45,619 nt of DNA, filler included, from Catajapyx aquilonaris (GCA_000934665.2; 2 parts of 2 records of this genome joined end to end with filler, not necessarily neighbours in it); one strand, 5' to 3'; counted from the first letter of the whole stretch, positions 2,238 through 32,155 are shown. The notes: generated by a model not told the origin, from the letters alone. Translations and numbers: made by a program.

Positions 2238-2777
2238 ATGATGTCAACTCGTAGCATCCTTATGACACTGATTGTGTTGGCTCTTGTGTCTCATATGACC
2301 CGAGTGACCCTTGGCCAGAATAGCTCAGGAGCAGTGGCCGCAGGCAAAAACACAGGTCCTCTGCAGCTCGAAAATTTGGCTCTCAACATAGCTGGCAAAG
2401 GTGGATCCAACGCATCTGGAGATAGTCTGAAGAGCTTGGCGGTCAATCTTCTGGGTCAAGACGGGTCAGGAGCTTCGGCCAGTGGTGGTCAACTGACCAA
2501 CGTGGCAGTCGACGCACTCTCAGGCGGTAATGAAGGACTTCTGGGCGAACTTCTTGCACTTCTTCAGAGCATCTTGGGAGGAGGCAAGACCACAAGTTAT
2601 ATGACGACTACGCGCAAGCACAGTCAGACCACAACAACATGCGAGGCAAAGACCACGACTCGTAAACCACGAACCACGACTCGTAAGGCAAGAACCACAA
2701 CCCGAAAGCCACGAACCACAACCAGAAAGCGAAGGACCACAACACGTAAGCCAAAAACTACGACTTGCGATGAGTGA
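2238..2777 (+). CDS. Secreted 179-aa protein with Gly-rich N-terminal repeats and a basic Thr-rich (TTTRKPR)n tail; mucin/glue-like
   Basis: Single coding exon with a hydrophobic signal peptide (MMSTRSILMTLIVLALVSHMTRVTLG). A 5'UTR intron lies at 2130-2189 (GTAAGT..TTTTGATAG), a GATAAAA TATA-like box near 2054 and AATAAA at 2830-2835. Repeat codons vary synonymously. Confidence 0.85.
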   Translation: MMSTRSILMTLIVLALVSHMTRVTLGQNSSGAVAAGKNTGPLQLENLALNIAGKGGSNASGDSLKSLAVNLLGQDGSGASASGGQLTNVAVDALSGGNEGLLGELLALLQSILGGGKTTSYMTTTRKHSQTTTTCEAKTTTRKPRTTTRKARTTTRKPRTTTRKRRTTTRKPKTTTCDE

Positions 2778-2971: not shown

Positions 2972-3992
2972 TTAGCCATATGAGGCATGATGGAACCTTG
3001 GGATGACCAGGGGGAGGAAGAGGGCTATTCCTGAGGGAATGGACCGGGAGTCTGCTCCGTTGCATTGGTCACCTTCGCAGAGACAGCTGATGCCTGGCTC
3101 TGATTTCCTGCAGTTCAGATACTCTGCTGCGAACGCACTAGACCCAATAAGGCAGCCGTACATCAGCCCAATTTCACCTTCAACTGGAAAGGTCGAGATA
3201 TCAACATATTTCGGTTTAACTCTACCACTACATAAGGGACGCAAACATTCGATTTCCGCGTCTCTCTGTTTGGGGCGTTGCCAAGGCTGGCGGCCATTTT
3301 GAAGTGGGGGCAACGCCAACGAGGTATCAATAGAGTACATGCAAAAAATAGGGTCCGCCATCTTTGATTCGCGCGTGTTCTTGCCGTGTAGTTGCCATGG
3401 CCGCCAAAACCATATTTGCCTGTACCCTATTTACACCTCGTTGGCATTGACCCCACTTCAAAATGGCCGCCAGCCTTGGCAACGCAACGGCCCCAAACAG
3501 AGAGACGCGGAAATCAATGGCGCTGACCGAAGTTTGCGCCTCTTATGTAGTACCGGTATATGCTCCCTGACCATACGTGCAAGACGGACAGTACTATAAC
3601 ACGCAAAAAGATTGTCGCACTGTATCAGTGTGGTGTCCGTGACTTGTTGTTTATCCTGGGCGTTGGTGGGTACGGTCACCCCCAAACCTTACACCAACCT
3701 TCGACTTCTATCTTTAAGCAGTACTGTGAGCAAGGGCTGCCTCCACAATCCGCGTCGGTTCTTACTTCCGGACACTTTTCCACAGGCCCTGTACCTCCTT
3801 CGCACTTTACACTGCCAGTGATAGTGTCGCAGTTGTACATGTAGCACCTTAGACCCACGGCTGCCAAAATAATGGCCGGGTCAGTCGTGCACCATAGCAT
3901 GAGAGTTGCCTATAATGTATACCTGCCTGGAAGATGGTCATCAGGAGGAAACTGGTCATCAACTTGAAAGTTGGAAGGGTGATACCCATCAT
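2972..3992 (-). CDS. Ly6/three-finger (quiver/sleepless-like) GPI-anchored protein A, about 147 aa, 3 exons
   Basis: Exons 3992-3923, 3860-3699 (alternative donor about 6 nt further) and 3183-2972 join in frame through phase-1 introns. Product has a signal peptide, LRCYMYNC...YCLK, GC...C...CLCEGDQCN and a hydrophobic tail; 12 Cys. Confidence 0.8.
3227..3569. mobile_element. Palindromic MITE family 1, copy 1 (in intron 2 of Ly6 gene A)
   Basis: Long inverted arms, nearly identical to 5740-6087 and 12270-12632 in the opposite orientation; ends in TATATGCTCCCTG, left end eroded. Confidence 0.85.
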
Positions 3993-4244
3993 CGAATCGA
4001 AAACAATGTCAGTATACTCATTGTTGTTCCTTTCGTCATGGCACCGGAATGGGAAAGGTATGATTCCAACAACCGAAAGCATTATTTCCGCAACAAAGGC
4101 ATGAGGTGGATATCATCGAATGTCATGGCAACTGCCCCAACAATGCTCTTCCCTTTGGTGTTGATACTTTCAGTCTGAAATTCTTCCAAGTTCGATAGAG
4201 TCAGCCCGAATATTTCTGGTTGTTTCAAGACGTTGCTTCCAGTG

Positions 4245-5117
4245 ATGGGCCAGCAGGTTCCTAAGGTCGTGGTCTTCCTTCTGCTGGCGTCCCCAGGTAA
4301 GTCGACCGGATGTCCCACAAGTGCGATTTATTGACCGATGCTTCTTTTGGCAGCCTTTGGTCGTTCATGCTACTATTACAACTGCACTGAGAAAGGGGAT
4401 TCCAGGTGCAACGTGGGTGAAGAAAACAAGATCGAGTGTCCAAACATCACGGGTAATGATACGTGCGGAAGCAAACCAAATGAAAAGGGCGATAATTGCG
4501 CATACTACTGCTACAAGATGTTGCTGAAAGGTGAGTCGCACATCTATCTAGCTATCTATCTATCTTTTCTATAAAATAATAAAGCCGTTTGTGATCTGTC
4601 TGTCTGTCTGCCTGCCTGGAACGCCATCCCTCATTTGCCTGCCATCTGTGGTCCACTCTCTCCAACCCAATTATTATATTTTTTCCAGTGACTGGTTACG
4701 TCCAGATCGATCTGGATCCCCGTTACCTGAACAGATCCGCCAAAGACACAGACTACGAAGATGAGAAGGGAAAGCAGACGAGTAAGGAGAAGGTAATTAA
4801 GCGGTGATCTCATTAATGAATCTGCTTAACAACACAGGAATGAAGGCGCATCTGCACTGTTTCCCTTATTATAGACGGAGGATGACCTCACCCGTCACAT
4901 CCATGGGTGCGCGAAGGGCCTGAAGGCGAACGAGGCTCAGTTTCTGAAGTGCAGGACTTCAGGGGACCAATCCGGAATGGTACTGGCGAAAACCTGCATG
5001 TGCAACACGGACAATTGCAACCCTGCAAAGGCCCAGACCACGCCATCTGCACGAACCCTCTCCTTGGCTTTGCTTCTCTCGTTCTTGTTGTTGCACACCC
5101 TGTTCCCCAGGGATTAA
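4245..5117 (+). CDS. Ly6/three-finger GPI-anchored protein B, about 191 aa, 4 exons, with a charged loop insertion
   Basis: Exons 4245-4296, 4354-4530, 4689-4792 and 4875-5117 (phases 1,1,0) give one ORF: MGQQVPKVVVFLLLASPAFGRSCYYYNC...YCYK...HGC...KTCMCNTDNCN plus hydrophobic tail; 12 Cys. Confidence 0.85.
4541..4630 (+). mobile_element. Probable non-autonomous Helitron (HINE-like) 5' fragment in intron 2 of Ly6 gene B
   Basis: TCTATAAAATAATAAA followed by (TGTC)n/(TGCC)n and GAACGC resembles arthropod Helitron 5' ends as I recall them; no 3' CTAG end was found. Confidence 0.35.
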
Positions 5118-5292
5118 AAAGTTTATTCGTTGCTTTTCACCTGCTGTCACATACTGTAGGCCTACAGTTGAATAGGAAATGAGGCTTCATCCTGACAGTG
5201 CAGGGCTACCCTCACGTCTCTGTTGCGCTATGCGTCACCTACATGCCAGGATAAAAGTCGGTTCAAATCAAAGGAAAGGACCGGACCATATT

Positions 5293-6175
5293 TTAATTCC
5301 GCAGATATTCTGGATAAGCAATTGAGATGACCACAGGTAGGAGGAGGGCTGCTGTTGTGTCTGCTTCGTTGCATACGTGTCCAAGGCAAATGCAGATCTT
5401 GTATGTTTTGTATTCGCCACAATCCAGATGGTCCTGCGCGTATGATGGGGTTGCCTCCATGCAGGTATAGTACTTGACACCTTGGGAGAAAGAACTGTTT
5501 GTGTTTGTGCGATTGCACTGTTGGCTATGCTTACTCTCCTGATGGTTGATGAGCTTGGCGCAGTACCATTTGCACACTGGAGGTTCTACTTCGCATTTGG
5601 GATCGGTAGGCTCCACTTGTATTCTTGGTACCTGTGCCGCAATGCACCATTTGCCCATCGGAGCCGTTGCAGGCATCATCCTTAGCGCACTTATGTTCAT
5701 AGCACTTCTTACTCACGACTTAAAAAACCAGCTTTCAGTCAGGGAGCATATACTACAAGAGGCGCAAACTTATGTCGGCGCCTTTGATGTTCGCGTCTCT
5801 CTGTTTGAGGCCGTTGCCAAGGCTGGCGGCCATTTTGAAGTGTGGGGAACGCCAACGAGGTATAAATAGGGTACAGGCAAAAATAGGGTCCGCCATCTTT
5901 CATGGTTTTGGCGGCCATGGCAACTACACGGCAAGAACACGCGCGAATCAAAGATGGCGTACCCTATTTTTGCCTGTACCCTATTTATACCTCGTTGGCG
6001 TTCCCCACACTTCAAAATGGCCGCCAGTCTTGGCGACCCCCCAAACAGAGAGACGCGGAAATCGAATGTTTGCGCCTCTTATTCCTGGTTCAGTCCTAAT
6101 AAAAGCAGTGTGTGTATATGACTCACCTAGCGACAAGAACTGCATGGCAAGGATGATTCCAACCAGTGACACCAT
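5293..6175 (-). CDS. Ly6/three-finger protein C, 3 exons, with a frameshift in exon 2 (possible pseudogene or assembly error)
   Basis: Exons 6175-6127 (MVSLVGIILAMQFLSL), 5718-5535 and 5480-5293. KKCYEHKC...HC and TDPKC...CKWYCAK lie in different frames; last exon TC...DC...ICICLGHVCN plus hydrophobic tail. Same 12-Cys pattern as A and B. Confidence 0.7.
5740..6087. mobile_element. Palindromic MITE family 1, copy 2 (in intron 1 of Ly6 gene C)
   Basis: Starts CAGGGAGCATATACTAC; right TIR partly deleted but ends CCTG; 7-bp flanks TTTCAGT / GTTCAGT. Confidence 0.85.
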
Positions 6176-6421
6176 CTGACAGGACTTATCAACTTTTTAT
6201 GAGGCAATTAATACACCAGCCCAACATAACGCGGCTTTAGAAGATGGCCTGGCATTGTCGCAAAATTACAACCAAAATTCTGGATGGTTTCTATTGCCAA
6301 AGACCTTCCTAATAATTGTTATGGCCGATTTGTCGCGTTGGCATGGATGCGTTGTTGTCCGAGGCATTGTTGGCCGTGATGGAACCCGGGTTCGTCTGAG
6401 AGGACGTGCAGAAACTAAGCC

Positions 6422-7408
6422 ATGCACAGGTCCACGGTTCTGATCCAAGCCACCATTCTGGCTGTCGGTAAGTATCATAGCTGTATAGCCATCACCAAGG
6501 CCATCACCTTTCTAGAGTGCTGACGCACATCACCCCTTTTCTATACACTGTGGTTTAATCCGTCAGCTTTTGGTGGTTGCGTGGCCCTGATGTGCTACGA
6601 GTGCAACTCAGACTCGATTGACAAACCCTGTCGCCAGAAACGGGAGGTCAACTGCTCGGCCTTGCAGCCCCAGAATGGGACCACCTGGTGGTGCTACACG
6701 CATAAGATCTACAGTGAGTGTCCAGCGTTATTAATTGGGAAACAGTTTAGCAGTGGCGTAGGCAGGAAATTTTTTCGGGGGGGGNTAATATTGTAACCTA
6801 TTGTAAGACTTTTTTGACGTATCATAACAGTATTCGAGTCGGAGAGGGGAGGGGGAGGATTTCATAAACCGCGAAAATATCTATAAGACAGAATGATATA
6901 CATTACATAATGTAATACATTTATTGATTTTTCTTAACATTTCGGGGGGGGGGGCCGGGCCCCCCCCCCCTGCCTACGCCACTGAGTTAAGTCATAATTA
7001 TCTGCCTCTTGCAGTCAACCATTACGTGAGGAAGTTACCAGTTAGTTACAAGGGATTCGGTGGTGACAGAGGCAGGAAAATTGCCGACAGCAAAGCGGGG
7101 CCTCCTTCAAGCCCATCTGCCGAAGACAAGGTGAGCTACAACCTACTGTAGTAAGTCATTATCAATCGCAGACTCATGATTGGTCGATTATTTTGGCAGG
7201 GCGAGTCGGCAGATGGGGAGCCACCAGCAGATGGGGAGCCAGCAGCAGACGCCATATCTGAGGATCAACCACCAGAAGGCGCAACTGATGATAATGAAAA
7301 TCCCCTATCCAACACGACGATCTGCGGCCGGGAACATTGCGGTGGCAACTGGGACAATAACTTCATCTACGTGGTGAGCCTCTTTGCCAATATAAAATGC
7401 ACAAGAAA

Positions 7409-7496
<88 letters not shown>

Positions 7497-8723
7497 GATA
7501 CCCCGTGATAGGCCCCTTGGGCCTCTTAGAGGATCATCTTTTGAATATCCGACTTTAATCATTTGCCTGTAATGTGATGGATTTTGATAGTGGGAGGAAA
7601 CGGGAGAACCCCGAGAAAACCCACGCGAACACGGAGAGAACCCATCGAAACTATCCACATAAATATCCTCCGTCAGACCCGGGGATCGAACTCGGGACCT
7701 TAGAGGTGGAAGGCTGCGGCACTAACCCCTCGGCCACCGTGTCGCCCTTAATAATAATCTATAATAAAAATAACATGCCGTCAACGTGGTGAGATTGTGC
7801 CAGCGCATTTTTGTGGGGAAAACAGTGCGCCCTACCGCGAATTTTACTCGTCATCGCTAACCTTAACTATGCCGCAATGTAGTAAAACAAGCCTAAATTC
7901 GCCTGCTGCCATCTATGTATATAAATCCCCTATCCGAGGAGGAGGATATAGGACGGAAAACATTTCGCACTTCCCGGAGTCGCAGAGCACTACCGTTGGA
8001 TTCCTAACCCACGAATTACTGGAGTCAAAAATCTTCATAATCGCAAATCTCCCAGCCGTTTTCGAGATAACGCCAATAAACTGAATCCGCAACCTCCCGG
8101 ATCGTTTCGCCACCCGCCCGACAGAGTACAGCTGCGGTCGCCTCAGCCACGCTCAGCCACCCACTGCCCCCCACCCCTCAACTCCACTCCCGTACCCAGC
8201 ACGCTCGCCCCCGCCCCCACCCGCTGGCCCAACCGCCCGTTTGGATGATACGTCAGAGACGCGTTCGGATGGTCTTCACCTGTAGCGGTGACGTCAGTGG
8301 TGGATGTTTAGTGACCGGATGAGCCCTCACTCTGACCAATTTTCGCATGAAAACACGTGCTGGGTTCGCATGGGGGGAGGGTCCCACCCCGAGCGTAGAG
8401 ACTCATATATTTATATTAGGCACATTTAGTTAGTTAGTCCATCGAAACCATTACAAACGATGGGACTCTTTTTGCAGGTTGTGAAAAGCATAGATAGGGT
8501 GTACAAGAACTGCACCGAAATCCACGAAGACGCATATCGAGATGAAACCCGCTATGGAAGGTTCCAGGATGGACTGGAGAACGTGGCCACAGGAGGGGTC
8601 GCTCATGTAACCCACTCCTTCTGCAAAGACGACTTATGCAACGGGGCCGGCCAGCAAGAGGTGACCCATCTTCTTGTGGCCATCCTACTGGTCGCTTGCT
8701 TCGGGATGGCTGCATTGGTCTAG
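6422..8723 (+). CDS. Ly6/three-finger GPI-anchored protein D, about 242 aa, 5 exons, with a ~95-aa loop insertion
   Basis: Exons 6422-6467, 6567-6713, 7015-7130, 7200-7373 and 8478-8723 (phases 1,1,0,0) join in frame: signal peptide, LMCYECNS...WCY, insertion, NC...FCKDDLCN, hydrophobic tail. AATAAA at 8777-8782. Confidence 0.85.
6751..6984. mobile_element. Small MITE (hAT/P-like) in intron 2 of Ly6 gene D
   Basis: TIR CAGTGGCGTAGGCAG ... CTGCCTACGCCACTG; flanks AGTTTAG / AGTTAAG (6 of 7 match). Confidence 0.8.
7413..7747 (-). mobile_element. tRNA-derived SINE with V-domain-like core and (ATT)n tail
   Basis: Minus strand: GGGCGACACGGTGGCCGAGGGGTTAG (A box), GAGTTCGATCCC (B box), then GTTCTCTCCGTGTTCGCGTGGG...CCCGTTTCCTCCCAC; tail is the (AAT)n tract at 7413-7495. 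Confidence 0.8.
7775..7910 (+). repeat. Dispersed DNA-transposon end fragment, related to 20685-20850
   Basis: Both copies share GTGAGATTGTGCCA, GCGCATTTTT and CCTAAATTCGCCT. Confidence 0.55.
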
Positions 8724-9739: not shown

Positions 9740-11122
9740 TCTTTCACTTATTTAAGTGGAAGGATAAGTGGAAATATTTGTCATTTATGCATAGAATATA
9801 GGCGGAAGATTTTTTGCCAAGATTATAAGGATTTGCATCATGCACAATAAACAATAATTGCATGGTGAAAACAACATCAGCAGACATAATAATTTTCCAC
9901 TTAAAATATACGATTTCCTTACACTTTCACATATTTTCCACATATTGTTAAGTGAAAACGATCACGATTATCTTATTTGAAGGAGTAATCCACAATTTAA
10001 TGAGGTTATGAATGCACAGTACCTCTTGTTTCCACTTAGATGAAAGGTAGGAACTAGTCAATTCTTTCCACTTATTTCATGGGAAATTAACTGACATTGT
10101 GAAGAACGGTTTTAAGTGGAAAATTCCACATAAGTGGAGGTTAGAGGGTACGTAGGAATACACGCGATTACTTCCACTTATTTAAGTGAAAATAACAGCT
10201 GTTTAAATTGAAAATATGTCTGAATTTTACTTACATAAGTGGAAGATAATTTTTCTGTTTATTTCTGTGGAATTTGCCTGAAAGTGTTCACTCGTTCAGT
10301 TCCCTTTTCCACTTATATTAAGTGGGAACTGGTAACATCCGTTTTTTCTACTTTAACCGCCCTAATTTCCTCTTAAAATGGAAAAATTTCATTTTACACA
10401 TGAGTGGACGAGATACGTGTTTTCACTTACAGCTGTTGTCATTTCCACTTAAAATAAGCGAAAAATCTGCATTTCATTCTTAAGTGGAAATTTATGAAGT
10501 TTTAAATGGAAAGAGTTTGTTATCTATTCCACTTATTGCAAATGGAAAATATTATCCCTCCCACTTAAAAAGTCAAAAAAATGAACTTAAGAATATTAAG
10601 AATTACGCAACACTTTTAAGTGGAAAATGAGAAAATGACGGCGGTTTTAAGTGGGAAATTAGTATTCTTTAAATAAATGGAAATGCGAATTTCTTTATAT
10701 TTAACTTATAAGTAGAAGTTGCCTGAATGTGTATGAAATTATTTCCCAATTTTAAGTGGAAAGGATAAGTGGAAAAGTCGTCTTCCTTCCACTTACAAAA
10801 GTGGACAAAAATGCGAATTTCGGTTCATTTATGTGAGTGGAATTTTGCTGTGGAGTTGTTTCCCAACTTTAAGTGGAAAAGAAGAAGGAATGGCAGTTCT
10901 TAGTGGAAAATCCTTCCACTTATGTAAATGGAAATTGATAGTTTTTAGTGGAAAATCCTTTCCCATATGTAAGTGGAAATTGACAGTTTTTAGTGTAAAA
11001 TCCATCCACTCATGTAAGTGGAAATTGATAGTTTTAGGGGAAAATCCCTTCCCTTATGTAAGTGGAAATTGATAGTTTTAGTGGAAAATCCTTCCACTTA
11101 TGTAAGTGGAAATTGACAGTTT
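9740..11122. repeat. Field of TTCCACTTA/TAAGTGGAA motifs ending in five tandem 44-45-bp palindromic units (10895-11122)
   Basis: Dozens of motif copies in both orientations. Unit AGTTTTTAGTGGAAAATCCTTCCACTTATGTAAGTGGAAATTGAT starts at 10895, 10940, 10985, 11030 and 11074. Confidence 0.85.
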
Positions 11123-11178: not shown

Positions 11179-13181
11179 TTAGACGCGCGTCTTCTTGGTT
11201 CCTGACTTCCCGTGGTGCGACTTTTTCCCTGTGGGCGGCTTGCCCGTGGGCGGTTTGCCCTTGGGCGGCGATGGGAGGGTGAGTACCCTGGGTGGCGGGA
11301 AGAGGTTGAGGCTGGAGCAGAACCACCAGCTGGTTGTGCCGCCTTCCTTAGGCTGCGCTGTGCTCACGTACGTGAAACGCGGCTCCTTCCGACGCAACAG
11401 GACCGCCTCGGAGAACCTTCGCGCAACCCATCTGTAAATTAATTATATTTTTTTAAAAATTTAATTACACTCGCGGCATATTCCCATGGGGTTACCAGCG
11501 ATGACCAGGTATTAAATTAATTACAATTATAATTATTGTAAATTATAGCACGATAAAAGGGGAGTCAGCATTGCCCACCGACATAGAGCATTTTGGAGAG
11601 TCAGAGACATACCTGGGCAGGAGGTAGACGGCCTCTGAGTGGCGTCGCCTGGTGGAGTCCAGCCTGAGTTCCAGAGATGACGAGAAGGCAGCTGGAAGGT
11701 AGGATCTTGTCCAGAGGATGCGGTTCTGGAAGCGTCTCTTGGTCTCCAGGACGCAGCGGGTCTCGTAGGTCAGGAGGACGTGCGGAGGCTCCCGGCTGAC
11801 CAACACCTCCTCCGAGTACGACCGACGCCAACCAGACGACATCGACGGCCTCGAATCCAGCCTATATTGTCCACAAACATGTTAAGAAATCCTGGACATC
11901 TTTTTGACGCCTATATACTTACGCTGGCCAATCAATGACGGCGCGAAGGTCATCGCTGGAGAGTGACCTGGCCCTGGTGGCAGGCGGCATGCTCTTTGAC
12001 CTCAGGCTAACTGACCTGGCGCCGACTTTTCCCGCTGGGGCCCCAGGGGCCGCCCCGGGGCCGCTCCTTACGCCCAGACACCCGCACCTGCATCTGCTCT
12101 GCGCACCTGCTGGAAAAAAATCATCGTTGCATTGTACGTAGAGAAATGTCATTATGCAAAATTAAAAATTTAACTATCATGCCCTGTTTATTAGACATAC
12201 TGACCGTATAAATGCAAACTAAGTACATAGACATAAACAGTGTGACGGAAAAATGAGACAGTCTTCAATCAGGGAGCATATACTACATAAGAGGCGCAAA
12301 CTTCTGTCGGCGCCTTTGATGTTCGCGTCTCTCTGTTTGGGGCCGTTGCCAAGGCTGGCGGCCATTTTGAAGTGTGGGGAACGCCAACGGGGTATAAATA
12401 GGGTACCGGCAAAAATATGGTCCGCCATCTTTGATGATTGTGGCGGCCATGGCAACTACACGGCAAGAACACGCGCGAATCAAAGATGGCGGACCCTATT
12501 TTTGCCTGTACCCTATTTATACCTCGTTGGCGTTCCACACACTTCAAGATGGCCGCCAGCCTTGGCAACGGTCCCAAACAGAGAGACGCAAAAATGGAAT
12601 GTTTGCGCCTCTTATGTAGTATATGCTCCCTACTTCAATGAACAAAATGTCGAGATGACATTAAATTCGTGTTTAATATAGCTTGTACGATAGTGTTACA
12701 TAACATATTTGATATTACCGTAGTTAGAATTATTTCAAGTACCTTCGATTTAAAATTATTTTCTTTCAAATTATTGAAGAATACTAAATATTTGTTGCAC
12801 TTGAAAGTATGCCAGTTAGGTTGATTACTAGTCGAGTCTCGTGACAAACAGGCGTCGATCGATCCAGCCCCAACAGAAGTATAGACGTCGCGACGCCCTC
12901 CACTCCGTCCACCCCATTTATTCGCGCCAAAAGTTTCTTGGGATGGACTTACCTCGTGTTTGGCTGTGGTGGTCAGCACTTCGGCAGGATTGGGTGGACC
13001 TGGAGGGCCCCGACGCCCCCGACGCCTTGGACGCCCCGGAGGCCCAACTCACCCTGGGATGCTGCTGGACGGGGGAGGAAGGGGGAGGAGGCGGGGGAGG
13101 GAGGGAGGAGGCCCTGCCACGACGCCTGTCCAGACGCTCGCAGGCGCCGGCGCCTCTCCCGCCCTGCTTCTCCCGGTTCAT
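11179..13181 (-). CDS. Orphan 4-exon gene E, about 305-aa basic Arg/Ser/Pro-rich protein of unknown function
   Basis: Exons 13181-12953, 12109-11923, 11861-11613 and 11431-11179 have GTAAGT/GTAAGT/GTATGT donors and AG acceptors. Phases 1,2,2 give a 918-nt stop-free frame; exons are GC-rich and introns AT-rich. Confidence 0.7.
12270..12632. mobile_element. Palindromic MITE family 1, copy 3, intact (in intron 1 of gene E)
   Basis: TIR CAGGGAGCATATACTACATAAGAGGCGCAAAC ... GTTTGCGCCTCTTATGTAGTATATGCTCCCTA; perfect 7-bp TSD CTTCAAT (12263-12269, 12633-12639). Confidence 0.92.
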
Positions 13182-14453: not shown

Positions 14454-16108
14454 TCATATGCCATTCTCAATTGATTTGACCACTTCTTGTTGCATATTTG
14501 CTTCTCCCTGCTCTACATGCCTTTTCTTGTGCCTCCAAAGAGCCATTGAGTCACTAAACTTCATCTCGCAAATCTGACAACCATATGGCTTTTCTCCCGT
14601 GTGAGTTCTGGTGTGGCGTTTCATCTCTACAGAGCGCTTAAACTTTTTATTGCAAAATTGACAACTGAAGGGCTTCTCCCCAGTGTGTACCCTTTTATGC
14701 ATTACCAAATGAGATCCATGATTAAACTTCATTTTGCAAATCTCGCAACTAAATGGTTTTTCTCCCGTGTGAATTCTGGTATGCAGTTGCAAATGTCTCG
14801 CGTTGCTGAACTTTTTATCGCATAATCGACAACTAAATGGCTTTTCTCCCGTGTGAGTTCTGGTGTGCCTTAATAAATCGCTCTTGTCCTTGAACCCTTT
14901 ATTGCAGAATTGGCAATTAAATGGCTTCTCCCCCGTGTGTGTCCTTTTATGAGATGCCAAAGTAGACTTCAGATTAAACTTTTTGTTGCAAATTTCGCAA
15001 CTAAATGGCCTCTCCCCTGTATGAATGCGCTCATGCCTTGCCAAACGATATGGATAACGAAATTCCTTAGAGCAAATCTGACAAGCATGAGTTCTTTTGT
15101 TACATAATTGAGAACTTAATGCCTTTTCCCCAGTGTGTGTCAGATAATGCCTTTCCAAATGAGGTGCCTGCATAAACTTCATCTCGCAAATTTCGCAACT
15201 AAATGGCCTCTCCCCTGTATGAATGCACTCATGCCTTGCCAAACGATATGGATAACGAAATTCTTTCGAGCAAATCTGACAAGCATGAGTTCTCCTGGTG
15301 TTCTTCTCCAGTCTTCTTTTCTTCTGAGTTTCTTCATCAGCCTTTCTTCGTTTTCCCTGAAGAAGACACAAACGCTGTGTAAGTGAGTGCACAGTAAGCC
15401 CACCTTCTATTACCCACCTTCTTCTTTGCCTTAGGTGCGCCTGTCCTATCGCAATTAACATTCTCTGCAGGAGGGTACGGCTCATCAGCGTCCAATTCGG
15501 GTTTAATTTTGGGTGGCACAAACAATACAAGTCCAGATAAGTCTTCAGTGCATGGTGACACCCTGTCTGAACCTGGAGTAGGCTGAAAATGAAAGTGGAT
15601 TAAGTCACTACGACTGTACATTAGATGATGCTGGGATTATTCAGTATAGTTTCTGCCATCCCCGTCGAGTCTAGCTTAGCTCTTGAGTGACTCGACATGC
15701 CTACGCACCTTGATGGTCCTTTGATCCGCGATGGCCAAGGGATCATCCGCGTTGTCAGGGGCATCCCACATGGCAACCGATGCTTCTTCTTCCTCTTCCT
15801 TCATGCTGCGGATGTCCTGCTCTTCACCGACCGAATAATGCGGATGAAAGTGCGGCTTGATGTCCTCCATCGCAAGCTTCCACGTCTCCTCACTGGTGAT
15901 GTCCTCATCATCACACCCTTCTTCTTTCACCTCCATCATAATCGTGCTCCTGTAAAATATTTGTAAAACTTAGCATATGTAACACATGCTGTGTATTCTT
16001 GTCATATCCGCAAGCTCAATTCCATCAATGTGCTATGTACCGAGCCAATAGTGAGTGCGGCAATCACCTCAGACGTAATACTCACTCCTCAACATCCCCT
16101 GTGTCCAT
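14454..16108 (-). CDS. C2H2 zinc-finger protein ZF1, about 443 aa, 9 intact fingers, acidic N-terminus
   Basis: Exons 16108-16086, 15949-15709, 15582-15418 and 15356-14454; tandem CxxC-x12-HxxxH with TGEKP/TGERP linkers; exon structure shared with ZF2. Confidence 0.9.
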
Positions 16109-16590
16109 TCCAGGCTCAGATTTAAGCAGAATTGGGGACACCAAGGCAGGAAAAGCATCGGATGGAAAAAGACGACGCCATCTTGGAAATTGTTGGGGGT
16201 GCGTTCATACTCCTGGCAAGTCGCATCGCTGTTATCACAGAATCGCTGCTACTGCTCGCCAATAGCGGTGATCGCAGTACGTTATTCGCTACTGATGAAC
16301 TTAATCCACTTTAACCATCGATAATTATGTTTAAATTCATCCTCACCCGACAGGATTGTTGAGATTTTATTTCACACAGCTTCACAGGTGATTACTACAA
16401 GAAGGTTACTCCAAAAAAAAAAAAAAAAGCAGAGCCGCAGAAAAAATGCGGGCCCAATCTTTCATTATTTTATAATTTATATTATTCACAATCGCATTGA
16501 AACACATACTGTTTCACAGTACACACTGTAATTGATTTCATACTGTACTAAGTCTTTACTAGCATGGAGATCATGTCTCCCAAGAACATG

Positions 16591-16745
16591 AGGGGAGGCG
16601 GAGTGGTGCTGCAGTAACGTATGCACCCTGGGGACACCCCCTTTATCTCGTGCAGAGTTCAGGGTCACCTCTGGCTTCGTCTTGGGTGGTATTTCCTAGA
16701 GACTAAACCACCCGGGGGAGTTCACTAAAAATTGCCACAGTGATG
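16591..16745 (+). mobile_element. SINE family S2, internally deleted fragment between the ZF paralogues
   Basis: GGGGAGGCGGAGTGGTGCTGCAGTAACGTATGCACC head and ATCTCGTGCAGAG...AGACTAAACCACCCGGGGGAG core match 24466-24790 and 32282-32658. Confidence 0.8.
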
Positions 16746-16760
16746 GCGGTCACTATTGGA

Positions 16761-18599
16761 CTAATCAACTTTCAGTTGCGAACCTGATTGTTCATTGGTC
16801 TCTTTCATATATGCATCCTTGAATGCTTGGCAGAATTGAATGACTTTATCCTCTGAATCTAATAATGGGGACTCCTCACTCTCGTGACATCTCATATGCC
16901 ATTCCAATTGATTTGACTGCTTGAAACTTTTGTTGCAGATTTGGCAAGTAAACGGCTTCTCCCCCCGAATATGCACCTTCTGGTGCCTCTTCAAGCCATT
17001 TGAGTCGCGAAACTCTTTCTTGCAAATCTGACAACCAAATGGCTGTTCTCTGGTGTGAGTTCTGGTATGGCGTGTCAAATCTGTGGGGTCCTTGAACTTT
17101 TTATTGCATAATGGACAACCGAATGGCCGTTCCCCAGAGTGTGTCCTTTTATGAGCTGCCAAAGTAGACGCCTGATTAAACTTTTTGTTGCAAATTTCAC
17201 AGCTGAACGGCTTCTCCCCAGTGTGTATCAGATTATGCACTGCCAATTGAGACCTCTGCTTAAACCCTTTGTTGCAAATTTTGCAACTAAATGGCTTCTC
17301 CCCAGTGTGTACCAGATTATGTGAGGCCAAAGAAGACGCCAGCCTGAAGTTTTTGTTGCAAATTTCACATTTAAATGGCTTTTCTCCGGTATGACTTCTG
17401 GTATGCCTCGTCAAATGTGTTCGGTGCTTGAACTTTTTATTGCAAAATTGACAACTGTATGGCTTTTCTCCTGTATGTATCAGATTATGTGCTGCCAAAT
17501 GAGCCGCCTGCTTAAACTTTGTGTTGCAAATTTCACAATTGAATGGCCGTTCCCCATCAGTGTGTGTCAGATTATGCATTGCCAACTGAGACTTCTGTTT
17601 AAACTTTTTGTTGCAAATTTCGCAACTGTATGGCCGTTCCCCAGTGTGTGTCACGTTATGCGCTGCCAAATGCGATGGTAGCTTAAACCTTTTGTTGCAA
17701 ATTTGGCAACTAAATGGCTTCTCCCCTGTATGAATGCGAGCATGCCCTGCCAAACCATATGCATCACGAAATTCCTTCGAGCAGATCTGACAAATGTGAG
17801 TTCTCTTGGCGTGATCACTTTTCTTCCCTGTTTCTTCATCAGCCTTTCTTTGTACTCCCTGAAATATATACAAATGCTGCATAAGTGAGTGCACAGTAAG
17901 CCCACCTTCTATTACCCACCTTCTTCTGTGCCTTAGGTGCGCCTGTCCTATCGCAATTAACATTCTCTGCAGGCGCGTACGGCTCATCAGTGTCCAATTC
18001 GGGTTTAATTTTGGGTGGCACAAACAATATAAGTCCAGACGAATCTTCAGTGCATGGTGACACCCCATCCAAACCCGGAGAAGGCTGAAAATGACTGTAC
18101 ATTAGATGACGTTGGGATTATTCGGTATAGTTTCTGCCATCCCCGTCGAGTCTAGCTTAGCTCTTGAGTGACTTGACATGCCTACGCACCTTGATGGTCT
18201 TTTGATCCGCGATGGCCAAGGGATCATCCGCGTTGTCAGGGGCATCCCACATGGCAACCGATGCTTCTTCTTCCTCTTCCTTCATGCTGTGGATGTCCTG
18301 CTCTTCCCCGACCAAATGCGGATGAAAGTGCGGCTTGATGTCCTCCATTGCAAGCTTCCATGTCTCCTCACTGGTGATGTCCTCATCATCACACCCTTCT
18401 TCTTTCACCTCCGTCATAACTGACTTGCTCCTAGAACAATTATTTTGTAATAATTGTAACACATGAGTAGGTGTCATTTTGTCATATCCGCATGATTCAA
18501 GCTCAATAATTTCCATAAATGTGCCATGTACCGAGCCAATAGTGAGTGCGACAATCACCCCAGATGTAATACTCACTCCTCAACATCCCCTGCGTCCAT
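16761..18599 (-). CDS. C2H2 zinc-finger protein ZF2, about 508 aa, 11 fingers; tandem paralogue of ZF1
   Basis: Exons 18599-18577, 18430-18190, 18084-17920 and 17858-16761; N-terminal exons and introns nearly identical to ZF1. Confidence 0.9.
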
Positions 18600-20850: not shown

Positions 20851-21468
20851 TATAGGGTGCACTCTATCCCATAGAAAGACCTTGGCATTTTGATACGTAT
20901 ATCGACCTGCCTGGGTCAACGTCTGGGCGTACATTTCCTTCTGAAGTGTACAGAAGGACTAATCGTCATTCCACGCTCAAACATCTGATATAACAAAGCC
21001 ATAGCAAATTACCTGCCTGGAAATGTAGGCGTGTAAAGAGTTTTTGTTGCCTTCAATAACATATGGGCTTACATGGGATTTGAGAAAACTCTCCAATTTC
21101 TGCGCTGGGAGTTAGGGACATTTGGTGTGTTGTGACCTCGGGGGGAGGTGGGGAGTACCATAAACTACCAGTAGATGCCATCAGTTAATTTATCGTGAAA
21201 ATGGACTTAGGGGACTTTGGAATCGCACTCTTCAATATTTTATCGACCTTGCAAGTGCACATTCGAGGAAGCACATTTCGCAGATGTGGACTGATACCAC
21301 TCTGTTTCCACATTCTCACATCTGATAGCAAGCCGGCTATAAGCTTCCGGTGTGGCAATGTAGGAGCTCGGTGTTGAAATTGGTGCAATAATTAGGTATT
21401 GAGCGGAGTTTGGGTTACGTGTGAAGGCGATTATGGTTGGGTGGGCCACGTCAGTGCTTGGGTGAAAC

Positions 21469-21562
21469 ATGTCAGGGTTGCAAGTGCTGGTCCTTTGCTC
21501 CGTGGCCATGGCCATGTTTGGGGACCACACCTCATCATCATCATCATCATCATCAGCAGCAG

Positions 21563-21617
<55 letters not shown>

Positions 21618-22789
21618 GGGTGTTGGGAAGAACGTGTCTGGTCTGATGGGAGAGCAGGAGAAGAGGAAGGGTGGGGAGGAAGGAGAGTGGTGGGCAGTGT
21701 CCAGACTGGTGAGGGGCGTCCTGGACACGAGGGAGGACATGCGGGGATGCGGCCTGGTCCTGTCCACTGACCTCGTCGGGTCATCGGGCGTCTGGGAGGG
21801 AATGTGGAGGCCTCTTCTCAAAGGTCACTCGGACAAGTACCTCCCGTCCTTCTCCCTCCGGACGACCTCCTTCCCACACTCCTTCACAGACTACCCCTGG
21901 CTCAAGGGTCAAGCTGACCTCTTGGACTTCACCACCGTCCCTCCTGACCTCCTCGTCACCTCCGCCTGGTCATCCTCCGTCTGCACCCTCCACCTCCTCC
22001 TCCCCTCCTCCCCGGCCTCCCTCCCACAACTGGTCATGTCCACCGCCTTCAAGGTCAAGGTCAGTCCACTCGACGACCCTTTCCTCATCCACTTGTCTCG
22101 GAGGTCATCAGGGTCACTCGTGGAGGAGGGAGAGGTCCATCGAGTGATGACCTCGCCCCCTGCCAGTGCCCTCAGGCTGAAGGTGTCCAGTCGGATAGAG
22201 GAAGGTGGACAGTTGAAGGTGGAGACTGTCTGCTTCTTCTGCGCAGAAGGGGGACAATCGATGGTCATCGATCTGGGCAGTGTCAAACATGCGGACAGAG
22301 CAAGAGTTGACAGCTTCTTCAAAAACTGCGACATAAACAAGATGAACAGGAAGCCAGTTGTTTTTGGAATGTATGTGTGCCCTGCTGACATGCGATGGAG
22401 GATGTTCGAAGGAGAAAAAAAGAACAAGGTGGAGGTTATCTGATGCTTACCGAAATGCTTTACATCGCTCTAGAGGAGGGAAGTGATTATTTCATTTCTG
22501 AGATTTACGTCAAGGAGCCGACCAGTACCGACTTTGACCACAGGCTGGACAACGGCACTTGGGTGGGACTGACACCTGAATTGTTGTCAGGACAAGTGGA
22601 TGTGATAGGTTCCTTGCCTTACACAAGTGAATCCTATCGATATACCATCCTAACTCATCCCTTCATTTACGTACACAACACATTCCTGACCCGAAGACCC
22701 GGAGGAGTGGTCAGCTGGAGGGTGATCTACAGGCCCTACGTCCTCCCCTTCTGGTTGTCCTTGGGGGTCACCCTGGCCCTCCTCCCCAT
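21469..22789 (+). CDS. Divergent ionotropic receptor (IR/iGluR-like), N-terminal part; frame break near 22371-22443; truncated by spacer
   Basis: Signal peptide and poly-Ser from (TCA)n; second frame has S1-lobe and pre-M1 motifs DNGTWVGLTPELLSGQVDV, LTHPF...FLTRRP and IYRPYVLPFWL. Confidence 0.75.
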
Positions 22790-22889
22790 NNNNNNNNNNN
22801 NNNNNNNNNNNNNNNNNNNNNNNNNNNNNNNNNTTAATTAATTAANNNNNNNNNNNNNNNNNNNNNNNNNNNNNNNNNNNNNNNNNNNN
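22790..22889. other. Artificial 100-nt contig spacer with six-frame stop linker
   Basis: 44 N + TTAATTAATTAA (22834-22845) + 44 N. Confidence 0.95.
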
Positions 22890-24793: not shown

Positions 24794-25185
24794 TCTGAAG
24801 CGTATGACTTTGCTGCTGACATGACTTTATTAATTCTAATATACTAAAGTGATTTTCATTACTAATGGACCTGAAATTGCTGCCCATTTCCCCATTGGAC
24901 AAGTTCCATTATATCTGACAAAAATTTCAGAAAAAAATCCACTCACCGCCAGGATAGCATCACATTCCTCCAAAAGACAAATTTCTTCTACATGCAGGGT
25001 CAGCTATAGCAGTGTTCCGGAATTAATAACAATAATTTTGATATCCCAGAAAAGTAATTAAAGTATCTGCTTAAAAGTAGCAATGCAGTGTCCAAAATTC
25101 ACTAATCACTATGGACCAGGCAATTGAAACATCTTAGATATGAATATCACATGAGCATTCACCCTTTATTTGGATTGATTTTCAG

Positions 25186-28100
25186 GTGCTTAGACAATGA
25201 GGGTAACAGTATGTGGATTGCTGACCAGCTCTTAGAGCACAGTTTCCTACAAACAGCTGTGGAGAAGCCATTAGCAGTAGTTGGAATGCCAATGGAGGCT
25301 GACCTGGCATGTGAAAAGCTGGAAGGAAATGCTATCAATCCATTATTTCTAACTGCAGCATGCCCAAAAGGCCAATCCAGAATCCAGACAGAATTTGAGA
25401 TTCTCACCTGGCTAGGACGTGGTAGTTTTGGAGATGTCGTCAAGGTTCGAAACAAACTGGACAGTGGCATTTACGCCATCAAGCGAATTCACCTCAACCC
25501 CAAGAATCGCCAGCTGAATCGCAAAATTACACGAGAGGTGAAACTGTTATCCCGCCTCAACCATGAGAATGTGGTGCGCTATTACAATGCCTGGGTTGAA
25601 ACACTGGTCAGAGAGCCACAGTGTAGCTTTCTTTCGAACAGTACCTTAAGTGAGCATAAAGAGTCTGGGGTGAATGTGGTAAGTAGTTTTGGCTTTGTTT
25701 TTGGTATTAAGACTTATTATAAACTCTCTTTTTTTGTTGCAGTCCTGTGATTTTGATGACGTAGAGAAATTAGCCCCTCCTGTTAAGGATGGACCTACAG
25801 ACTGGAGCATTTCTTATGAGGCAAAGAGTAGTGCTCTCATTTCGGGGCAAGGTGTCAGTTCAGATGACAGCTCTGATGACAATGAATGGCTTGGAACCTC
25901 ATATTTGTAAGCTGGATGCAGTAGAGATTTATTATTTGTTATAGGTAACTATGAAAGTATTTTTTTACAGACCCTCCTCAGAGTCTTCAGATAGTGTAGT
26001 TTTTGAGAGAGATGGTGAAGAGGATGCTCAAGAAGGTGATGCCATTATCGTGAATCAGAGCAGCACAAGTACTGTCGCAAAGCAGCCGACTGAAATTCAG
26101 TATATGTACATTCAAATGGAATTTTGTGAGAAGAGTACACTCAGGTGAGAGTTTGTAAGCATGTGTCAGGGACAATGAAACAGAATGCCTTTTGCAGGAA
26201 TGCTATCGACAACCAGCTGTGGCAGGATTCCAATCGGGTGTGGAGATTATTTCGGGAGATCATAGAGGGTCTCCTGCATATACACCAGCAGGGCATGATC
26301 CATCGTGATTTGAAGCCAGTTAATATTTTCCTGGACTCCAATGATCATGTGAAGATTGGTGACTTTGGCCTGGCTACCACCAACATGCTGCCAATGTACT
26401 GCACATTGCAGAAGAAACGTTTTCACCAATTATACTGAATTCTGTGCCGTTTCCACAGGGCTGCTGCTGCACAAGTTGGCAATGTTGATGATAGTTTGCA
26501 TAACAGCAAGTTAGATGGGAAGTTGAGTTCGGAAGAACTTACAGGACAAGTGGGCACTGCACTTTATGTTGCCCCAGAATTAGTTGGTAGTGGGGTTGAA
26601 GTTGCTTATAATCAGGTAGGTACTTTGCATACCATCCTTACACACAAAGTGATGTAAGTGTCTTTTAGAAAGTGGACATCTATTCCCTTGGGATAATATT
26701 CTTTGAGATGTGCTATCGAACCCCAAGTACTGGAATGGAACGTGTTCAAGTCCTGGTTGACTTGCGGAAGCGAGACCCACAATTTCCAGCTGATTTTGAG
26801 CAAGTGGCAACGTCCCGCCATGCTAATGTCATTTGCTGGATTCTAAGCTATGATCCTGTTCAGCGCCCCACTTCCTTAGAGTTGCTTCGCTCAGAGCATG
26901 TTCCACCTCCCCAGTTGGAAGATGCTGAGTTGCAGGAAATGGTTCGACACACTTTGTCTAATCCTCAGAGCAAGGCTTACAAGTATTTGGTGGCATCATG
27001 CTTTGAACAGGTAAGGGTAATGCCCAGCTTCTTGAAAATACATGATTGATGTTTCATATATTGTGTTTTAGGATTCTTCTGCTGCTGAAGATGTAACCTA
27101 TGACATGGATAACCCTAAAAGCACTGTGAATCCAAAAGTTCTTTGCTTGCAAGAGAAAGTGAAAGAGATGGTTGTGCTTGTTTTCCAACGTCATGGTGCC
27201 CTGCAAGTATCCACGGGTCTATTTATGCCGAAGAACATGGTATATGAACAGACCGAATCGTGTGTCAGACTAATGACTCATGGCGGCAATGTGGTATCAG
27301 TTCCACATGATTTGCATGCCCCATTTGCACGATTTGTGGTGTGGAATAACCTCTCAGCAATTAGACGTTATTGTGTTGATAAAGTGTACAGGGAGAAGAA
27401 GGTGTTTGGTTCACATCCAAGGGAACTTTACGAGTGTGCATTTGACATAGTTTCTCCTTCGTCTGGTGAGTTTTCTCAGGTTAATGTCAGTTTGTAGCTA
27501 AGAAACATTTGGAATTAATAATCTTGTGTCTGTGTTGACAGGTAACTTGATGGCAGACGCTGAGCTTTTGACCATCCTTTGGGAAATAGTCAATGAAATT
27601 CCAGGATTGAAGGATAAGAGTTATATAATACGACTAAACCACACTGGCCTGATCAAGGCTCTGCTGCTTCATTGCGGAATTGAAGAGGAGAAGCATGATC
27701 AGGTCTACTCCATACTGAGTGACGCTAAGGTGACTATTGGTTGTTGCCCTGCAATGGGTAGTTGAATTTGTGTTTTACAATAATTGGTTGTCATGCAGGC
27801 AGAAAAGCACTCTAAATTCCAAATACAGACGCATCTCATCAGTCTTTGCCTGCCTGAGAGAGCTGTGAGCTCTCTGTATAGTTACATTGAGAAGGACAGT
27901 TCGATGACAGAGATCACCAGCACTTTACGAAACCTGACTCGTCGCCAGGGTCGAGCAGCAATTTTGGCGAAGGAAGGTCTGAAGGACCTCAAACGCATCA
28001 TATCACATGCAGAAGCGTTTGGAGTTAAGGTGAGCATTGGCGTCTAAACAACTTGCACCCTGACTTTCCCCTTTCGACATGCACAAGGATGTCATAAAAT

Positions 28101-31535: not shown

Positions 31536-31597
<62 letters not shown>

Positions 31598-32038: not shown

Positions 32039-32083
<45 letters not shown>

Positions 32084-32119
32084 GTAGTAGTAGTAATAAT
32101 AATAATAATAACAGTAGTA

Positions 32120-32155
<36 letters not shown>

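Follow-up and report, generated by a model that had tools for sequence, protein, structure and literature searches.

The locus examined here raises the question of how two head-to-head pairs of small genes came to stand side by side, and whether the pairing itself has a function. It lies in a stretch of 45,619 nucleotides from Catajapyx aquilonaris (GCA_000934665.2; two parts joined with filler), referred to below as the window. The original prediction held that a short and a long Ly6/three-finger gene on a shared bidirectional promoter had been duplicated as a cassette, and that the members of each pair may act as co-expressed partners.

Gene models and layout of the locus

Four spliced Ly6/LU-type genes, A(-), B(+), C(-) and D(+), form two divergent pairs, as had been proposed, and all of their predicted introns (11/11) have GT-AG ends. 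The ATG codons stand at 3992/4245 in A/B and at 6175/6422 in C/D, leaving 252 and 246 bp between them, and the predicted distance of about 250 bp thus holds for both pairs. The gene models and two inserted elements are as follows:

2972..3183, minus strand, A exon 3, plesiotypic Cys6-10 and hydrophobic GPI-type tail
3226..3572, no strand, palindromic MITE-like element in A intron 2
3693..3860, minus strand, A exon 2, seven Cys (Cys1-5 plus the extra pair)
3923..3992, minus strand, A exon 1, signal peptide; ATG at 3992 or, more likely, 3959
4245..4296, plus strand, B exon 1, signal peptide
4354..4530, plus strand, B exon 2, seven Cys
4689..4792, plus strand, B extra exon at the loop II tip, adding 35 charged residues, phase 1 to 0
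4875..5117, plus strand, B last exon, Cys6-10 and GPI-type tail
5293..5480, minus strand, C exon 3, Cys6-10 and GPI-type tail
5535..5718, minus strand, C exon 2, 184 nt, frameshifted as assembled
5737..6083, no strand, the same MITE-like element in C intron 1
6127..6175, minus strand, C exon 1, signal peptide
6422..6467, plus strand, D exon 1, signal peptide
6567..6713, plus strand, D exon 2, Cys1-5 with classical CxxC spacing, without the extra pair
7015..7130, plus strand, D extra exon 3, rich in G/P/S and basic, phase 1 to 0
7200..7373, plus strand, D extra exon 4, acidic and containing a C-x4-C pair; phase 0 at both ends, can be skipped without a frame change
8478..8723, plus strand, D last exon, Cys6, Cys9, Cys10 and GPI-type tail

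The structural plan of an LU gene, in which a signal exon precedes two domain exons, the introns are in phase 1 and one of them lies at the tip of loop II, is found here: the first and second introns are in phase 1 in A, B and D, and likewise in C once its frame break is allowed for. Each gene ends in a C-x4-CN motif and a hydrophobic tail of putative GPI type, 24-31 residues long with hydropathy peaks of 2.40-3.36. A and B have the ten plesiotypic Cys in order, an Asn after the tenth and two extra Cys, which gives 12 in each; C has them only when read through with X. Gene structure and Cys pattern support the Ly6/three-finger assignment of all four genes, and the predicted 12-Cys pattern stands for A and B, for its absence from D, and for C with that proviso.

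The same reservation applies to the description of a short minus-strand and a long plus-strand gene in each pair. The exon numbers agree with it (three in A and C, four in B and five in D, with the extra exons of B and D both inserted in the loop II intron), but C as assembled is not an intact three-exon protein. Its coding sequence of 421 nt, in which the 184-nt exon 2 is flanked by phase-1 introns, loses its frame in the middle of that exon (about 5615-5635) in this assembly. A small extra intron that would skip the break is unlikely, because the paralogs have none there and the options of normal intron length spotted by eye would each delete a conserved Cys. In A, exon 2 may end at GTAAGG after 3693, the same donor as in the paralogs, or at GTTGGT after 3699, both in phase 1. 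The start of A at 3992 is doubtful because the family promoter module described below overlaps it; judged by promoter spacing, translation probably begins at 3959, which fits better.

The compact layout is in itself ordinary, since arthropods often have clustered Ly6 genes and often have head-to-head pairs. According to PMC2670823, divergent pairs with starts less than 1 kb apart account for 31.6% of Drosophila genes, and 58.2% of such pairs correlate positively, so that a head-to-head arrangement is common; yet tandem duplicates make up only 4.3% of those pairs and housekeeping genes predominate, whereas at this locus a gene is paired with its own paralog and the promoter modules are duplicated. 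Nor is tight spacing peculiar to the head-to-head junctions, because the tail-to-tail gaps are equally short (194 bp between the neighbouring gene E and A, 175 bp between B and C). With E included, five genes alternate + - + - + within 6.5 kb. The MITE-like element shared by A and C was considered as a sign of cassette duplication and rejected: it occupies different introns, which makes the copy in C an independent insertion, and it recurs at 12262-12640, in the intron of gene F and beside C12268.

The 12-Cys family and its relatives

Judged by their sequences, A, B and C are members of a lineage-specific 12-Cys Ly6 family, and 22 further loci in the genome share their Cys pattern and exon layout. 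The signature consists of a C-x4-C start together with one additional Cys pair, located between Cys4 and Cys5. A profile built from nine paralogs on other contigs gave 64.3 bits with C, 50.2 with A and 48.0 with B, against at most 9.1 for the eight classical Ly6 genes of the same genome that served as controls. Both core exons are open in 12 of the 25 family loci, and an open frame across both domain exons is absent from every member fetched. In profile-profile comparison, only the last 14 columns (23%) of the family aligned to the genome's classical Ly6 genes, so the case for a three-finger fold is made by the order of the Cys and the structure of the exons.

The genes resemble those of single-domain GPI-anchored Ly6/uPAR proteins. 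As PMC6600238 describes them, these share the signal exon and two domain exons, the phase-1 introns with one at the loop II tip, ten Cys in LU order ending in CN, the hydrophobic tail, and a habit of small clusters and lineage-specific expansion. Unlike them, A, B and C have four residues between Cys1 and Cys2 as well as the extra pair that follows Cys4; in B and D, extra exons add loop II inserts of 35 and 97 residues, and D is without Cys7 and Cys8. In Drosophila, Ly6 clusters III and V (with crok, atilla, CG6583 and twit among their genes) are similarly compact groups of duplicated genes with a common exon structure, orientations mixed between lineages and lineage-specific duplicates; according to PMC4476152 they have 8-10 Cys and diverged expression domains, whereas members of the present family have 12 Cys, are mostly dispersed and often broken, and keep one promoter module.

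The exon 3 profile found no close relative outside the genome among 1.84 billion protein representatives. The four matches it gave were generic: a multi-repeat protein from a nematode, a two-domain protein from krill, an artefact of repeats and an unnamed Ly6 of classical type. Nothing scored in homologue searches with C at near lengths, or with the exon 2 alignment and the last exon of D at longer ones, these searches being word-based and weak for short divergent queries. An Atlas search with B exon 2 gave no usable match, and a PDB sequence search returned only BMPR2 (E 0.12) and nothing for D. The subfamily comprises at least 25 loci missed by Pfam, and none of three large protein searches brought up a close relative.

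The analogy with quiver/sleepless and septate-junction proteins, under which the four genes would encode conserved proteins that modulate ion channels, nAChRs or the assembly of junctions, is weak. The general architecture of signal peptide, single LU domain and GPI-type tail is common to both, as in the arthropod quiver/sleepless proteins (PF17064). The last exon of B matches QVR at E 0.028, and that of D falls near a cluster in which 14% of members carry QVR (0.91). This match of B is nevertheless the best in a scan of single exons, and its 15.9 bits lie under the gathering cut-off of 27.3, a level no exon in the window reaches; the genome's QVR matches over the cut-off (7/18) are all on other contigs. 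The lack of a close relative in the search of representatives also counts against the analogy. The many broken copies and a dN/dS near 1 in the core are unlike housekeeping modulators, and we regard such a role as improbable.

That dN/dS comes from six pairs, several of whose members are broken copies, and amounts to 1.01 (0.73-1.43) for the non-Cys core and 0.52 (0.33-0.84) for the tails, after the tails of two of the six pairs were dropped for truncation; among the pairs kept, one has a shifted tail as well. For the domain, positive selection is unsupported, as the interval spans 1, and the tails are under purifying selection.

Promoter modules and the origin of the pairs

The spacers between the paired genes hold the following elements:

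3992..4046, minus strand, A copy of the family promoter module, with its upstream element at 4046, AACAATG element at 4030 and downstream element at 4004
4118..4174, plus strand, B copy of the module, with its AACAATG element at 4134, TGTTGAT element at 4157 and TCAGT word at 4170
6350..6376, minus strand, two AACAA(T/C)G elements facing C (6376 and 6361)

The module of A is an imperfect palindrome with a two-part score of 19.3, and that of B scores 18.0; values of at least 18 occur at 2 of 367,796 background positions. The two modules lie 104 bp apart and face outward. Anchoring succeeded in 11 of 12 paralogs, with leave-one-out scores of 20.6-38.5; C2835 was omitted from the matrix because the anchor pattern did not fit there. 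Gene F, the probable sister of A, scores only 7.6, and the suggestion that the neighbour E shares the family promoter failed, the element being absent from E. A genome-wide search with the promoter pattern gave 11 matches against 3 for a control, of which seven are family promoters and one led to a new member. Amino-acid identity among members sharing the module is at most about 40%, and its retention despite this divergence points to one tissue programme. Insect SoxC binds AACAATG in EMSA (PMC9309532), and a Sox-family factor acting on this element might turn the genes on in one tissue. A and B are probably co-expressed; their transcription start sites are placed from motifs only.

The C/D spacer is built differently. 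Between its genes stands a single pair of elements, scoring 16.0 and 15.9 (2/367,796 background positions reach 14 or above). This pair lies 46-61 bp upstream of the ATG of D on the opposite strand, nearer to D's ATG than to C's; a downstream element at the family spacing is absent, and D is without the module of B (best matrix score 5.0). When each spacer was compared with its own reverse complement, 5 of 500 shuffles equalled the A/B score and 95 of 500 the C/D score. No similarity was detected between the two spacers (244/300 and 60/300 shuffles equalled the score). Promoters in the short spacers agree with the prediction, but a single bidirectional one fits A/B poorly, as each gene owns an outward-facing module, an arrangement that suggests inverted duplication with two promoters; C and D may share one.

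Protein comparisons lead in the same direction. With the Cys held fixed, A and B score 88 in exon 2 and 67 in the last exon, values reached by none of 500 shuffles in either case; A and C score 49 and 58; and B and D only 5 and 12, equalled by 18/500 and 27/500 shuffles. Blastp gives 60.5 bits for A-B against 16.9 for B-D, and a 44-nt inverted DNA match (75%) joins A and B at the start of exon 2. Within the window, A and B are by sequence each other's nearest relatives. The LG+G4 tree recovered (A,B,F) in 713 of 1,000 bootstraps and the mixture model in 369. These trees are weak, no grouping among the window genes being starred, and their family side had 13, later 14, rows out of 25 loci plus D, broken and partial paralogs being omitted (C514, whose exon 3 is broken, was for that reason absent from the second tree). 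The genes elsewhere in this genome that we take to be crok-like branch apart (91/88 to 95/96). From the start of the last exon to Cys6 there are 5 codons in C, 5-6 in the dispersed paralogs and 9 in A and F.

Could a short(-)/long(+) pair nonetheless have been copied whole, with C/D then diverging fast or gene conversion homogenizing each pair, so that only the layout still betrays the copied unit? The near-equal spacers would suit such an event, and so would a phase-0 intron (by best acceptor) 11 codons before Cys6, seen only in B and D among 24 Ly6 genes. Both also have an extra exon of 35-39 codons that runs from phase 1 to phase 0, a longer loop III, and four N-glycosylation sequons each against 0-1 in A and C; the inverted A/B match is what conversion, or duplication, would leave. 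The loop II position of the extra exons is nevertheless expected, because the intron there is the sole one inside an LU domain (PMC6600238) and any new exon would arise at it. The extra exons themselves are not detectably similar (anchored p 0.13-0.15; local, 804/1000 shuffles), the spacers are unrelated, and D is without the promoter module, the C-x4-C start and the extra pair. The (B,D) grouping of the proposed cassette appeared in 0/1000 bootstraps in every tree and (A,C) in 9, 0 and 0 of 1,000, with both given as 0/1000 under both models. The AU test rejected neither (p 0.149-0.253 for (B,D), 0.219-0.336 for (A,C)), so the predicted tree found next to no bootstrap support while falling short of rejection. 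On balance, cassette duplication appears rather unlikely.

We somewhat favour, instead, the view that this is a local cluster of long standing, part of a lineage-specific Ly6/LU subfamily which grows and decays by duplication. One gene would have undergone inverted duplication together with its promoter to give A and B, after which a new exon would have arisen in the loop II intron of B. A separate branch nearer the dispersed paralogs would have given rise to C and D, with D acquiring its loop II exons independently, and we hold this sequence of events, read from the comparisons above, to be fairly probable. Compared beyond Cys6 with dispersed paralogs, D obtains scores of +9, +7 and +5; the comparison with C gives 0, and those with A and B give -17 and -14.

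Gene D and possible roles of the proteins

The encoded proteins would be secreted, with LU disulfides 1-5, 2-3, 4-6, 7-8 and 9-10 and, in the 12-Cys members, one more formed by the extra pair between Cys4 and Cys5. Anchored by GPI, they could expose their variable loops to outside partners, for recognition or adhesion on the surface of a gamete, a gland or an epithelium. A surface-recognition role under birth-and-death turnover, rather than that of conserved channel modulators, seems to us moderately plausible from the sequences. The rapid turnover would also suit three-finger proteins secreted by a gland, or of venom type. The product of the neighbour E is secreted and rich in repeats, and contig C1656 groups a paralog of E, an A-like gene and an ORF that we take, from its motif, to be phospholipase A2-like. 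The hydrophobic GPI-type tails of all four genes and most paralogs, maintained by purifying selection, speak against release from the membrane, however, and E is without the family promoter element; this is the least probable of the roles considered. The SLPTX5 frame is listed with 5-11 Cys in PMC4379518.

D departs furthest from the family. Its mature chain has 10 Cys in a pattern unlike that of A and B, with Tyr (TAT, 8553) at the position of Cys7 and Ser (TCC, 8616) at that of Cys8, so that 8 of the 10 plesiotypic Cys are kept and the ten-Cys definition of LU is missed. It is alignable with classical Ly6 genes over 81 columns (88%), on which ground we class it as an eroded LU domain. Its scores of 13.6 bits against the 12-Cys profile and 14.5 against the classical one, together with the lack of the extra pair, leave it outside the subfamily, while trees place it beside or inside the family, which suggests a derived relative. 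No second copy of D appeared in genome searches. Its frame is open, and it apparently encodes an intact single LU domain without the 7-8 disulfide. Loss of this bond is described as very rare and destabilizing in single-LU proteins, and as tolerated in N-terminal domains of multi-LU proteins (PMC6600238). D resembles uPAR domain I and other such N-terminal domains in lacking this pair and in its long loop III, but those sit within multi-LU proteins, whereas D is a single domain with a large loop II insert.

It could therefore be imagined that the pairs are obligate partners, the short protein binding the long one, and that D, a functional single-domain three-finger protein, leans on the LU domain of a co-transcribed 12-Cys chain much as uPAR domain I does on its neighbours. 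Both replaced codons of D are one base from a Cys codon, suggesting paired loss in a maintained gene, and the closeness of both spacer elements to the ATG of D is also in its favour. Yet the supposed partner C is frameshifted as assembled while D is open; none of 13 dispersed paralogs has a divergent LU neighbour that might serve as a long partner; and D has no second copy in the genome searches. Moreover, two Drosophila multi-LU proteins and TGF-beta R2 also manage without the 7-8 bond (PMC6600238), so other means of stabilization exist. Two-chain receptors of this kind are quite improbable, only marginally less so than venom-type proteins; were they real, the pairs would be a split version of the multi-domain uPAR design under one Sox-site promoter, and the dispersed short paralogs a variable repertoire of partner chains. 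As a putative single domain, D could be used to probe the rule that the 7-8 bond is needed for single-domain folding.

Four three-finger genes and a twelve-cysteine subfamily

Six-frame reading combined with splice modelling gave four spliced Ly6/LU three-finger genes, A to D, in two head-to-head pairs, as the original prediction had described them; the start codons, placed by it about 250 bp apart, are separated by 252 bp (A/B) and 246 bp (C/D).

Gene A: 3992-3923, 3860-3699 (or 3693), 3183-2972; minus strand; 147 aa, 12 Cys
Gene B: 4245-4296, 4354-4530, 4689-4792, 4875-5117; plus strand; 191 aa, 12 Cys
Gene C: 6175-6127, 5718-5535, 5480-5293; minus strand
Gene D: 6422-6467, 6567-6713, 7015-7130, 7200-7373, 8478-8723; plus strand; 242 aa, 10 Cys in the mature chain

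All 11 introns have GT-AG borders, and each product has a hydrophobic N-terminus and, past the final CN, a tail of 24-31 residues with a hydrophobic stretch. The tail-to-tail gaps are equally short (194 and 175 bp), and the strand alternates over five genes when E, a secreted repeat-protein gene next to A, is included. The 12-Cys pattern had been claimed for A, B and C and denied to D; this held for A, B and D, whereas the frame of C (coding sequence, 421 nt) breaks, as assembled, in the middle of exon 2 (184 nt, flanked by phase-1 introns), and its pattern emerges only if X is put in for the break. The donor and acceptor words of C intron 2 match those of several paralogs, which supports the gene model and hence the break.

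A search of the same genome (285.6 Mb, 20,583 contigs) with single-exon queries, followed by local profiles on the retrieved stretches, revealed 22 further loci with the 12-Cys pattern, or at least 25 in total, since such searches score only the best candidates. Both core exons are open in 12 of the 25; the other 13 include 2 at contig ends, the rest being frameshifted, interrupted or partial. A profile built from nine dispersed paralogs scored 64.3 bits on C, 50.2 on A, 48.0 on B and 13.6 on D, and at most 9.1 on eight classical Ly6 genes of this genome. Compared with the LU consensus (PMC6600238), the family combines all ten plesiotypic Cys with an additional pair located between Cys4 and Cys5, and its disulfide connectivity probably follows that consensus. 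The analogy with quiver is weak: in single-exon searches with the QVR model (PF17064), the last exon of B reached only 15.9 bits, and the genome's 18 matches with E up to 0.1, of which 7 pass the cut-off, all lie on other contigs. Nothing close was found beyond this genome, in searches that are weak as negatives. The set of conserved Ly6 genes, together with the Atlas neighbours of D, indicates an arthropod.

Several family copies are incomplete or rearranged. Open 12-Cys domains at C1126:46593-46770 and C2887:22550-22817 lack the hydrophobic tail and are either secreted forms or decaying copies. The copy at C3241:16214-17043, whose exon 2 is broken, carries a tandem duplication of exon 3 (408 bp, 99.5% identity). 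A promoter-only copy (C4032:17450-17600) and an exon-3-only copy (C4281:1109-1800, seemingly inside an intron of an unrelated gene) are both close to paralog C24; pieces of the family travel as DNA fragments.

Gene D has a classical CxxC start without the extra Cys pair, and its last exon retains only Cys6, Cys9 and Cys10. In a gap-free alignment from Cys6, the Cys7 and Cys8 positions are occupied by Tyr (TAT) and Ser (TCC), each a single base off a Cys codon, so that the 7-8 bond has lost both its Cys; the frame nevertheless stays open across all five exons. Loss of this bond is described as very rare and destabilizing in single-domain LU proteins (PMC6600238), and a literature search for further cases brought up only that review and one on uPAR. 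Loop II of D is extended by a 97-residue, mainly low-complexity insert; a skippable exon within it contributes a separate C-x4-C pair. Genome searches returned no second copy of D.

Tandem-grown Ly6 clusters have been described (PMC4476152, PMC6600238), and arthropods are credited with a mean of 31 such genes per genome (PMC13719153). Neither 12-Cys invertebrate Ly6 expansions nor head-to-head Ly6 pairs were found in the open-access literature; the supplementary lists of PMC13719153 may hold relatives. The layout is ordinary, but the subfamily is undescribed and has one structurally odd member.

Origin of the head-to-head pairs

No divergent LU gene was detected within 1.5 kb of any of 13 paralogs (two stretches being shortened by contig ends); applied to the four window genes, this detector recognized the LU start in 4/4 and the signal exon in 3/4. 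Family arrays elsewhere run head-to-tail. The head-to-head arrangement is thus local rather than a family requirement; it is widespread in insects, with 31.6% of Drosophila genes so organized (PMC2670823).

The original prediction proposed that an ancestral short-plus-long pair was duplicated as a unit, grouping A with C and B with D. The closest similarity is instead between A and B: blastp gave 60.5 bits for A-B, 51.2 for A-C, 27.7 for B-C and only 16.9 for B-D. When exons were scored with Cys positions fixed against 500 shuffles, A-B reached 88 and 67 in its two exons, above 500/500 shuffles each, and A-C 49 and 58, while B-D did not exceed A-D or C-D. A domain-core tree of 21 rows recovered (A,B) in 697, (A,C) in 9 and (B,D) in 0 of 1000 bootstraps. 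With F, an A-like 12-Cys gene on contig C1656, added (22 rows), (A,F) and (A,B,F) received 785 and 713 under LG+G4 and 503 and 369 under a mixture model, and both (A,C) and (B,D) had 0 under either. Past Cys6, D is similar to the dispersed paralogs rather than to A or B; the two spacers are unrelated to each other, as are the inserts of B and D. Yet the branches are long, and AU tests rejected neither (B,D) (p = 0.253, 0.149) nor (A,C) (p = 0.336, 0.219). B and D also share a phase-0 acceptor 11 codons before Cys6, found in exactly these two among 24 Ly6 genes. Of the others, 20 have their best last-exon acceptor in phase 1 and one in phase 2; one further gene has a phase-0 acceptor 18 codons out, with its phase-1 site ranking second. 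The acceptor common to B and D is the sole real mark of their kinship. Duplication of a ready-made pair seems rather improbable, and we lean towards independent inverted duplications as the explanation of the cluster.

Promoter modules

Twelve dispersed paralogs are preceded by a conserved block: it opens with a CGTTG-type element, continues with ACAACAATG and, some 9-16 bases further, TTTGTTGAT, and closes with an initiator word resembling TCAGTT. The block is anchored in 11 of the 12 (leave-one-out scores 20.6-38.5; 12.9 for the twelfth), an agreement that is not independent because of common descent. The window genes share no alignable non-coding DNA with these paralogs, repeats excepted, and therefore serve as a test. 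Modules were found for A (minus strand, 4030, score 19.3) and B (plus strand, 4134, score 18.0), against a background of 2/367,796 positions at 18 or above. In 10 of 11 paralogs the initiator-like word lies 44-60 bases past the first element, and the ATG 102-235 past it. The same spacing would put the start of A at about 3970-3986, beyond ATG 3992, which makes ATG 3959 the likelier one (distance 71; 73 for its equivalent in F).

With an oriented module for each gene and these predicted starts, the A/B spacer looks like two back-to-back promoters rather than the shared bidirectional promoter originally proposed; the C/D spacer leaves room for the latter. There, two strong first elements for C (6376 and 6361) lack a second element to go with them; the strand of D carries none, though the two elements of C lie 46-61 bp before the ATG of D. 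For gene F the score is only 7.6, although an inverted pair, AACAAT-N4-ATTGTT, is present. A genome-wide search for the exact pattern returned 11 matches, as against 3 for the reversed control; the 11 comprise 5 known family promoters, 1 new family gene (C514), 1 promoter-only copy and 4 unrelated sites. EMSA showed AACAATG to be a SoxC site in a moth promoter (PMC9309532), and a Sox factor may bind the AACAATG element of the family.

By eye, acceptor-like pyrimidine plus CAG words were also seen directly before the ATG of B (4233-4245) and of C (6167-6175), and a donor-like site at 6269 could mark the border of an intron in the 5' UTR of C, the splicing of which would eliminate two upstream ATGs.

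Selection, neighbourhood and possible role

For six paralog pairs on other contigs, dN/dS was 0.84 (0.61-1.15) over the domain and 1.01 (0.73-1.43) without the Cys codons; tails, available from four pairs only, gave 0.52 (0.33-0.84). The loops thus appear to evolve at a roughly neutral rate, a figure inflated by broken copies, with scaffold and anchor conserved; positive selection on the domain was not demonstrated in the six pairs.

Other features of the window are as follows.

2238-2777, plus strand: gene E, single coding exon, 179 aa, signal peptide
14454-18579, minus strand: two C2H2 zinc-finger genes in tandem, their acidic first exons almost identical
21466-22841, plus strand: long ORFs, frame change near 22400; no Pfam match, presumably an intron-poor variant ionotropic receptor
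25106-39377, plus strand: kinase gene (domain by Pfam), which we take to be GCN2-like
About 28500-35400, minus strand: presumed SMYD-like genes, seemingly in the large intron of the kinase gene

The product of gene E is rich in Gly, Ala and Leu in its middle part and contains six TTT(R/K)K repeats; the gene also has a TATA-like word and, in the 5' UTR, an intron of 60 nt. It presumably resembles mucin or glue proteins; seven more matches occur in the genome, two pairs among them inverted. At C1656:36100-44315, an E paralog (plus strand) stands head-to-head with the intact F (minus strand), about 1.7 kb apart, and an ORF that is presumably phospholipase A2-like follows. Contig C1656 also carries a zinc-finger gene related by family to those at 14454-18579; it may be an old segmental copy, or else belong to the same chromosomal neighbourhood. 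The position of E beside A, and of its paralog beside F, hints at a secretory epithelium; E itself lacks the family promoter element.

A Sox-type factor might activate the family in one tissue, where the products would be secreted, fold as LU domains and then become GPI-anchored, displaying variable loops that could bind outside partners. With such turnover and such variable loops, a role in recognition or adhesion is a better fit than one like that of quiver, given that the conserved Ly6 genes exist separately.

A MITE-like palindrome, about 340-380 bp long, occurs in the window at 3226-3572, 5737-6083 and 12262-12640, as well as in the F intron and next to paralog C12268. A 45-bp tandem repeat (10895-11122, 5.1 copies) lies in AT-rich sequence made up of related short repeats.
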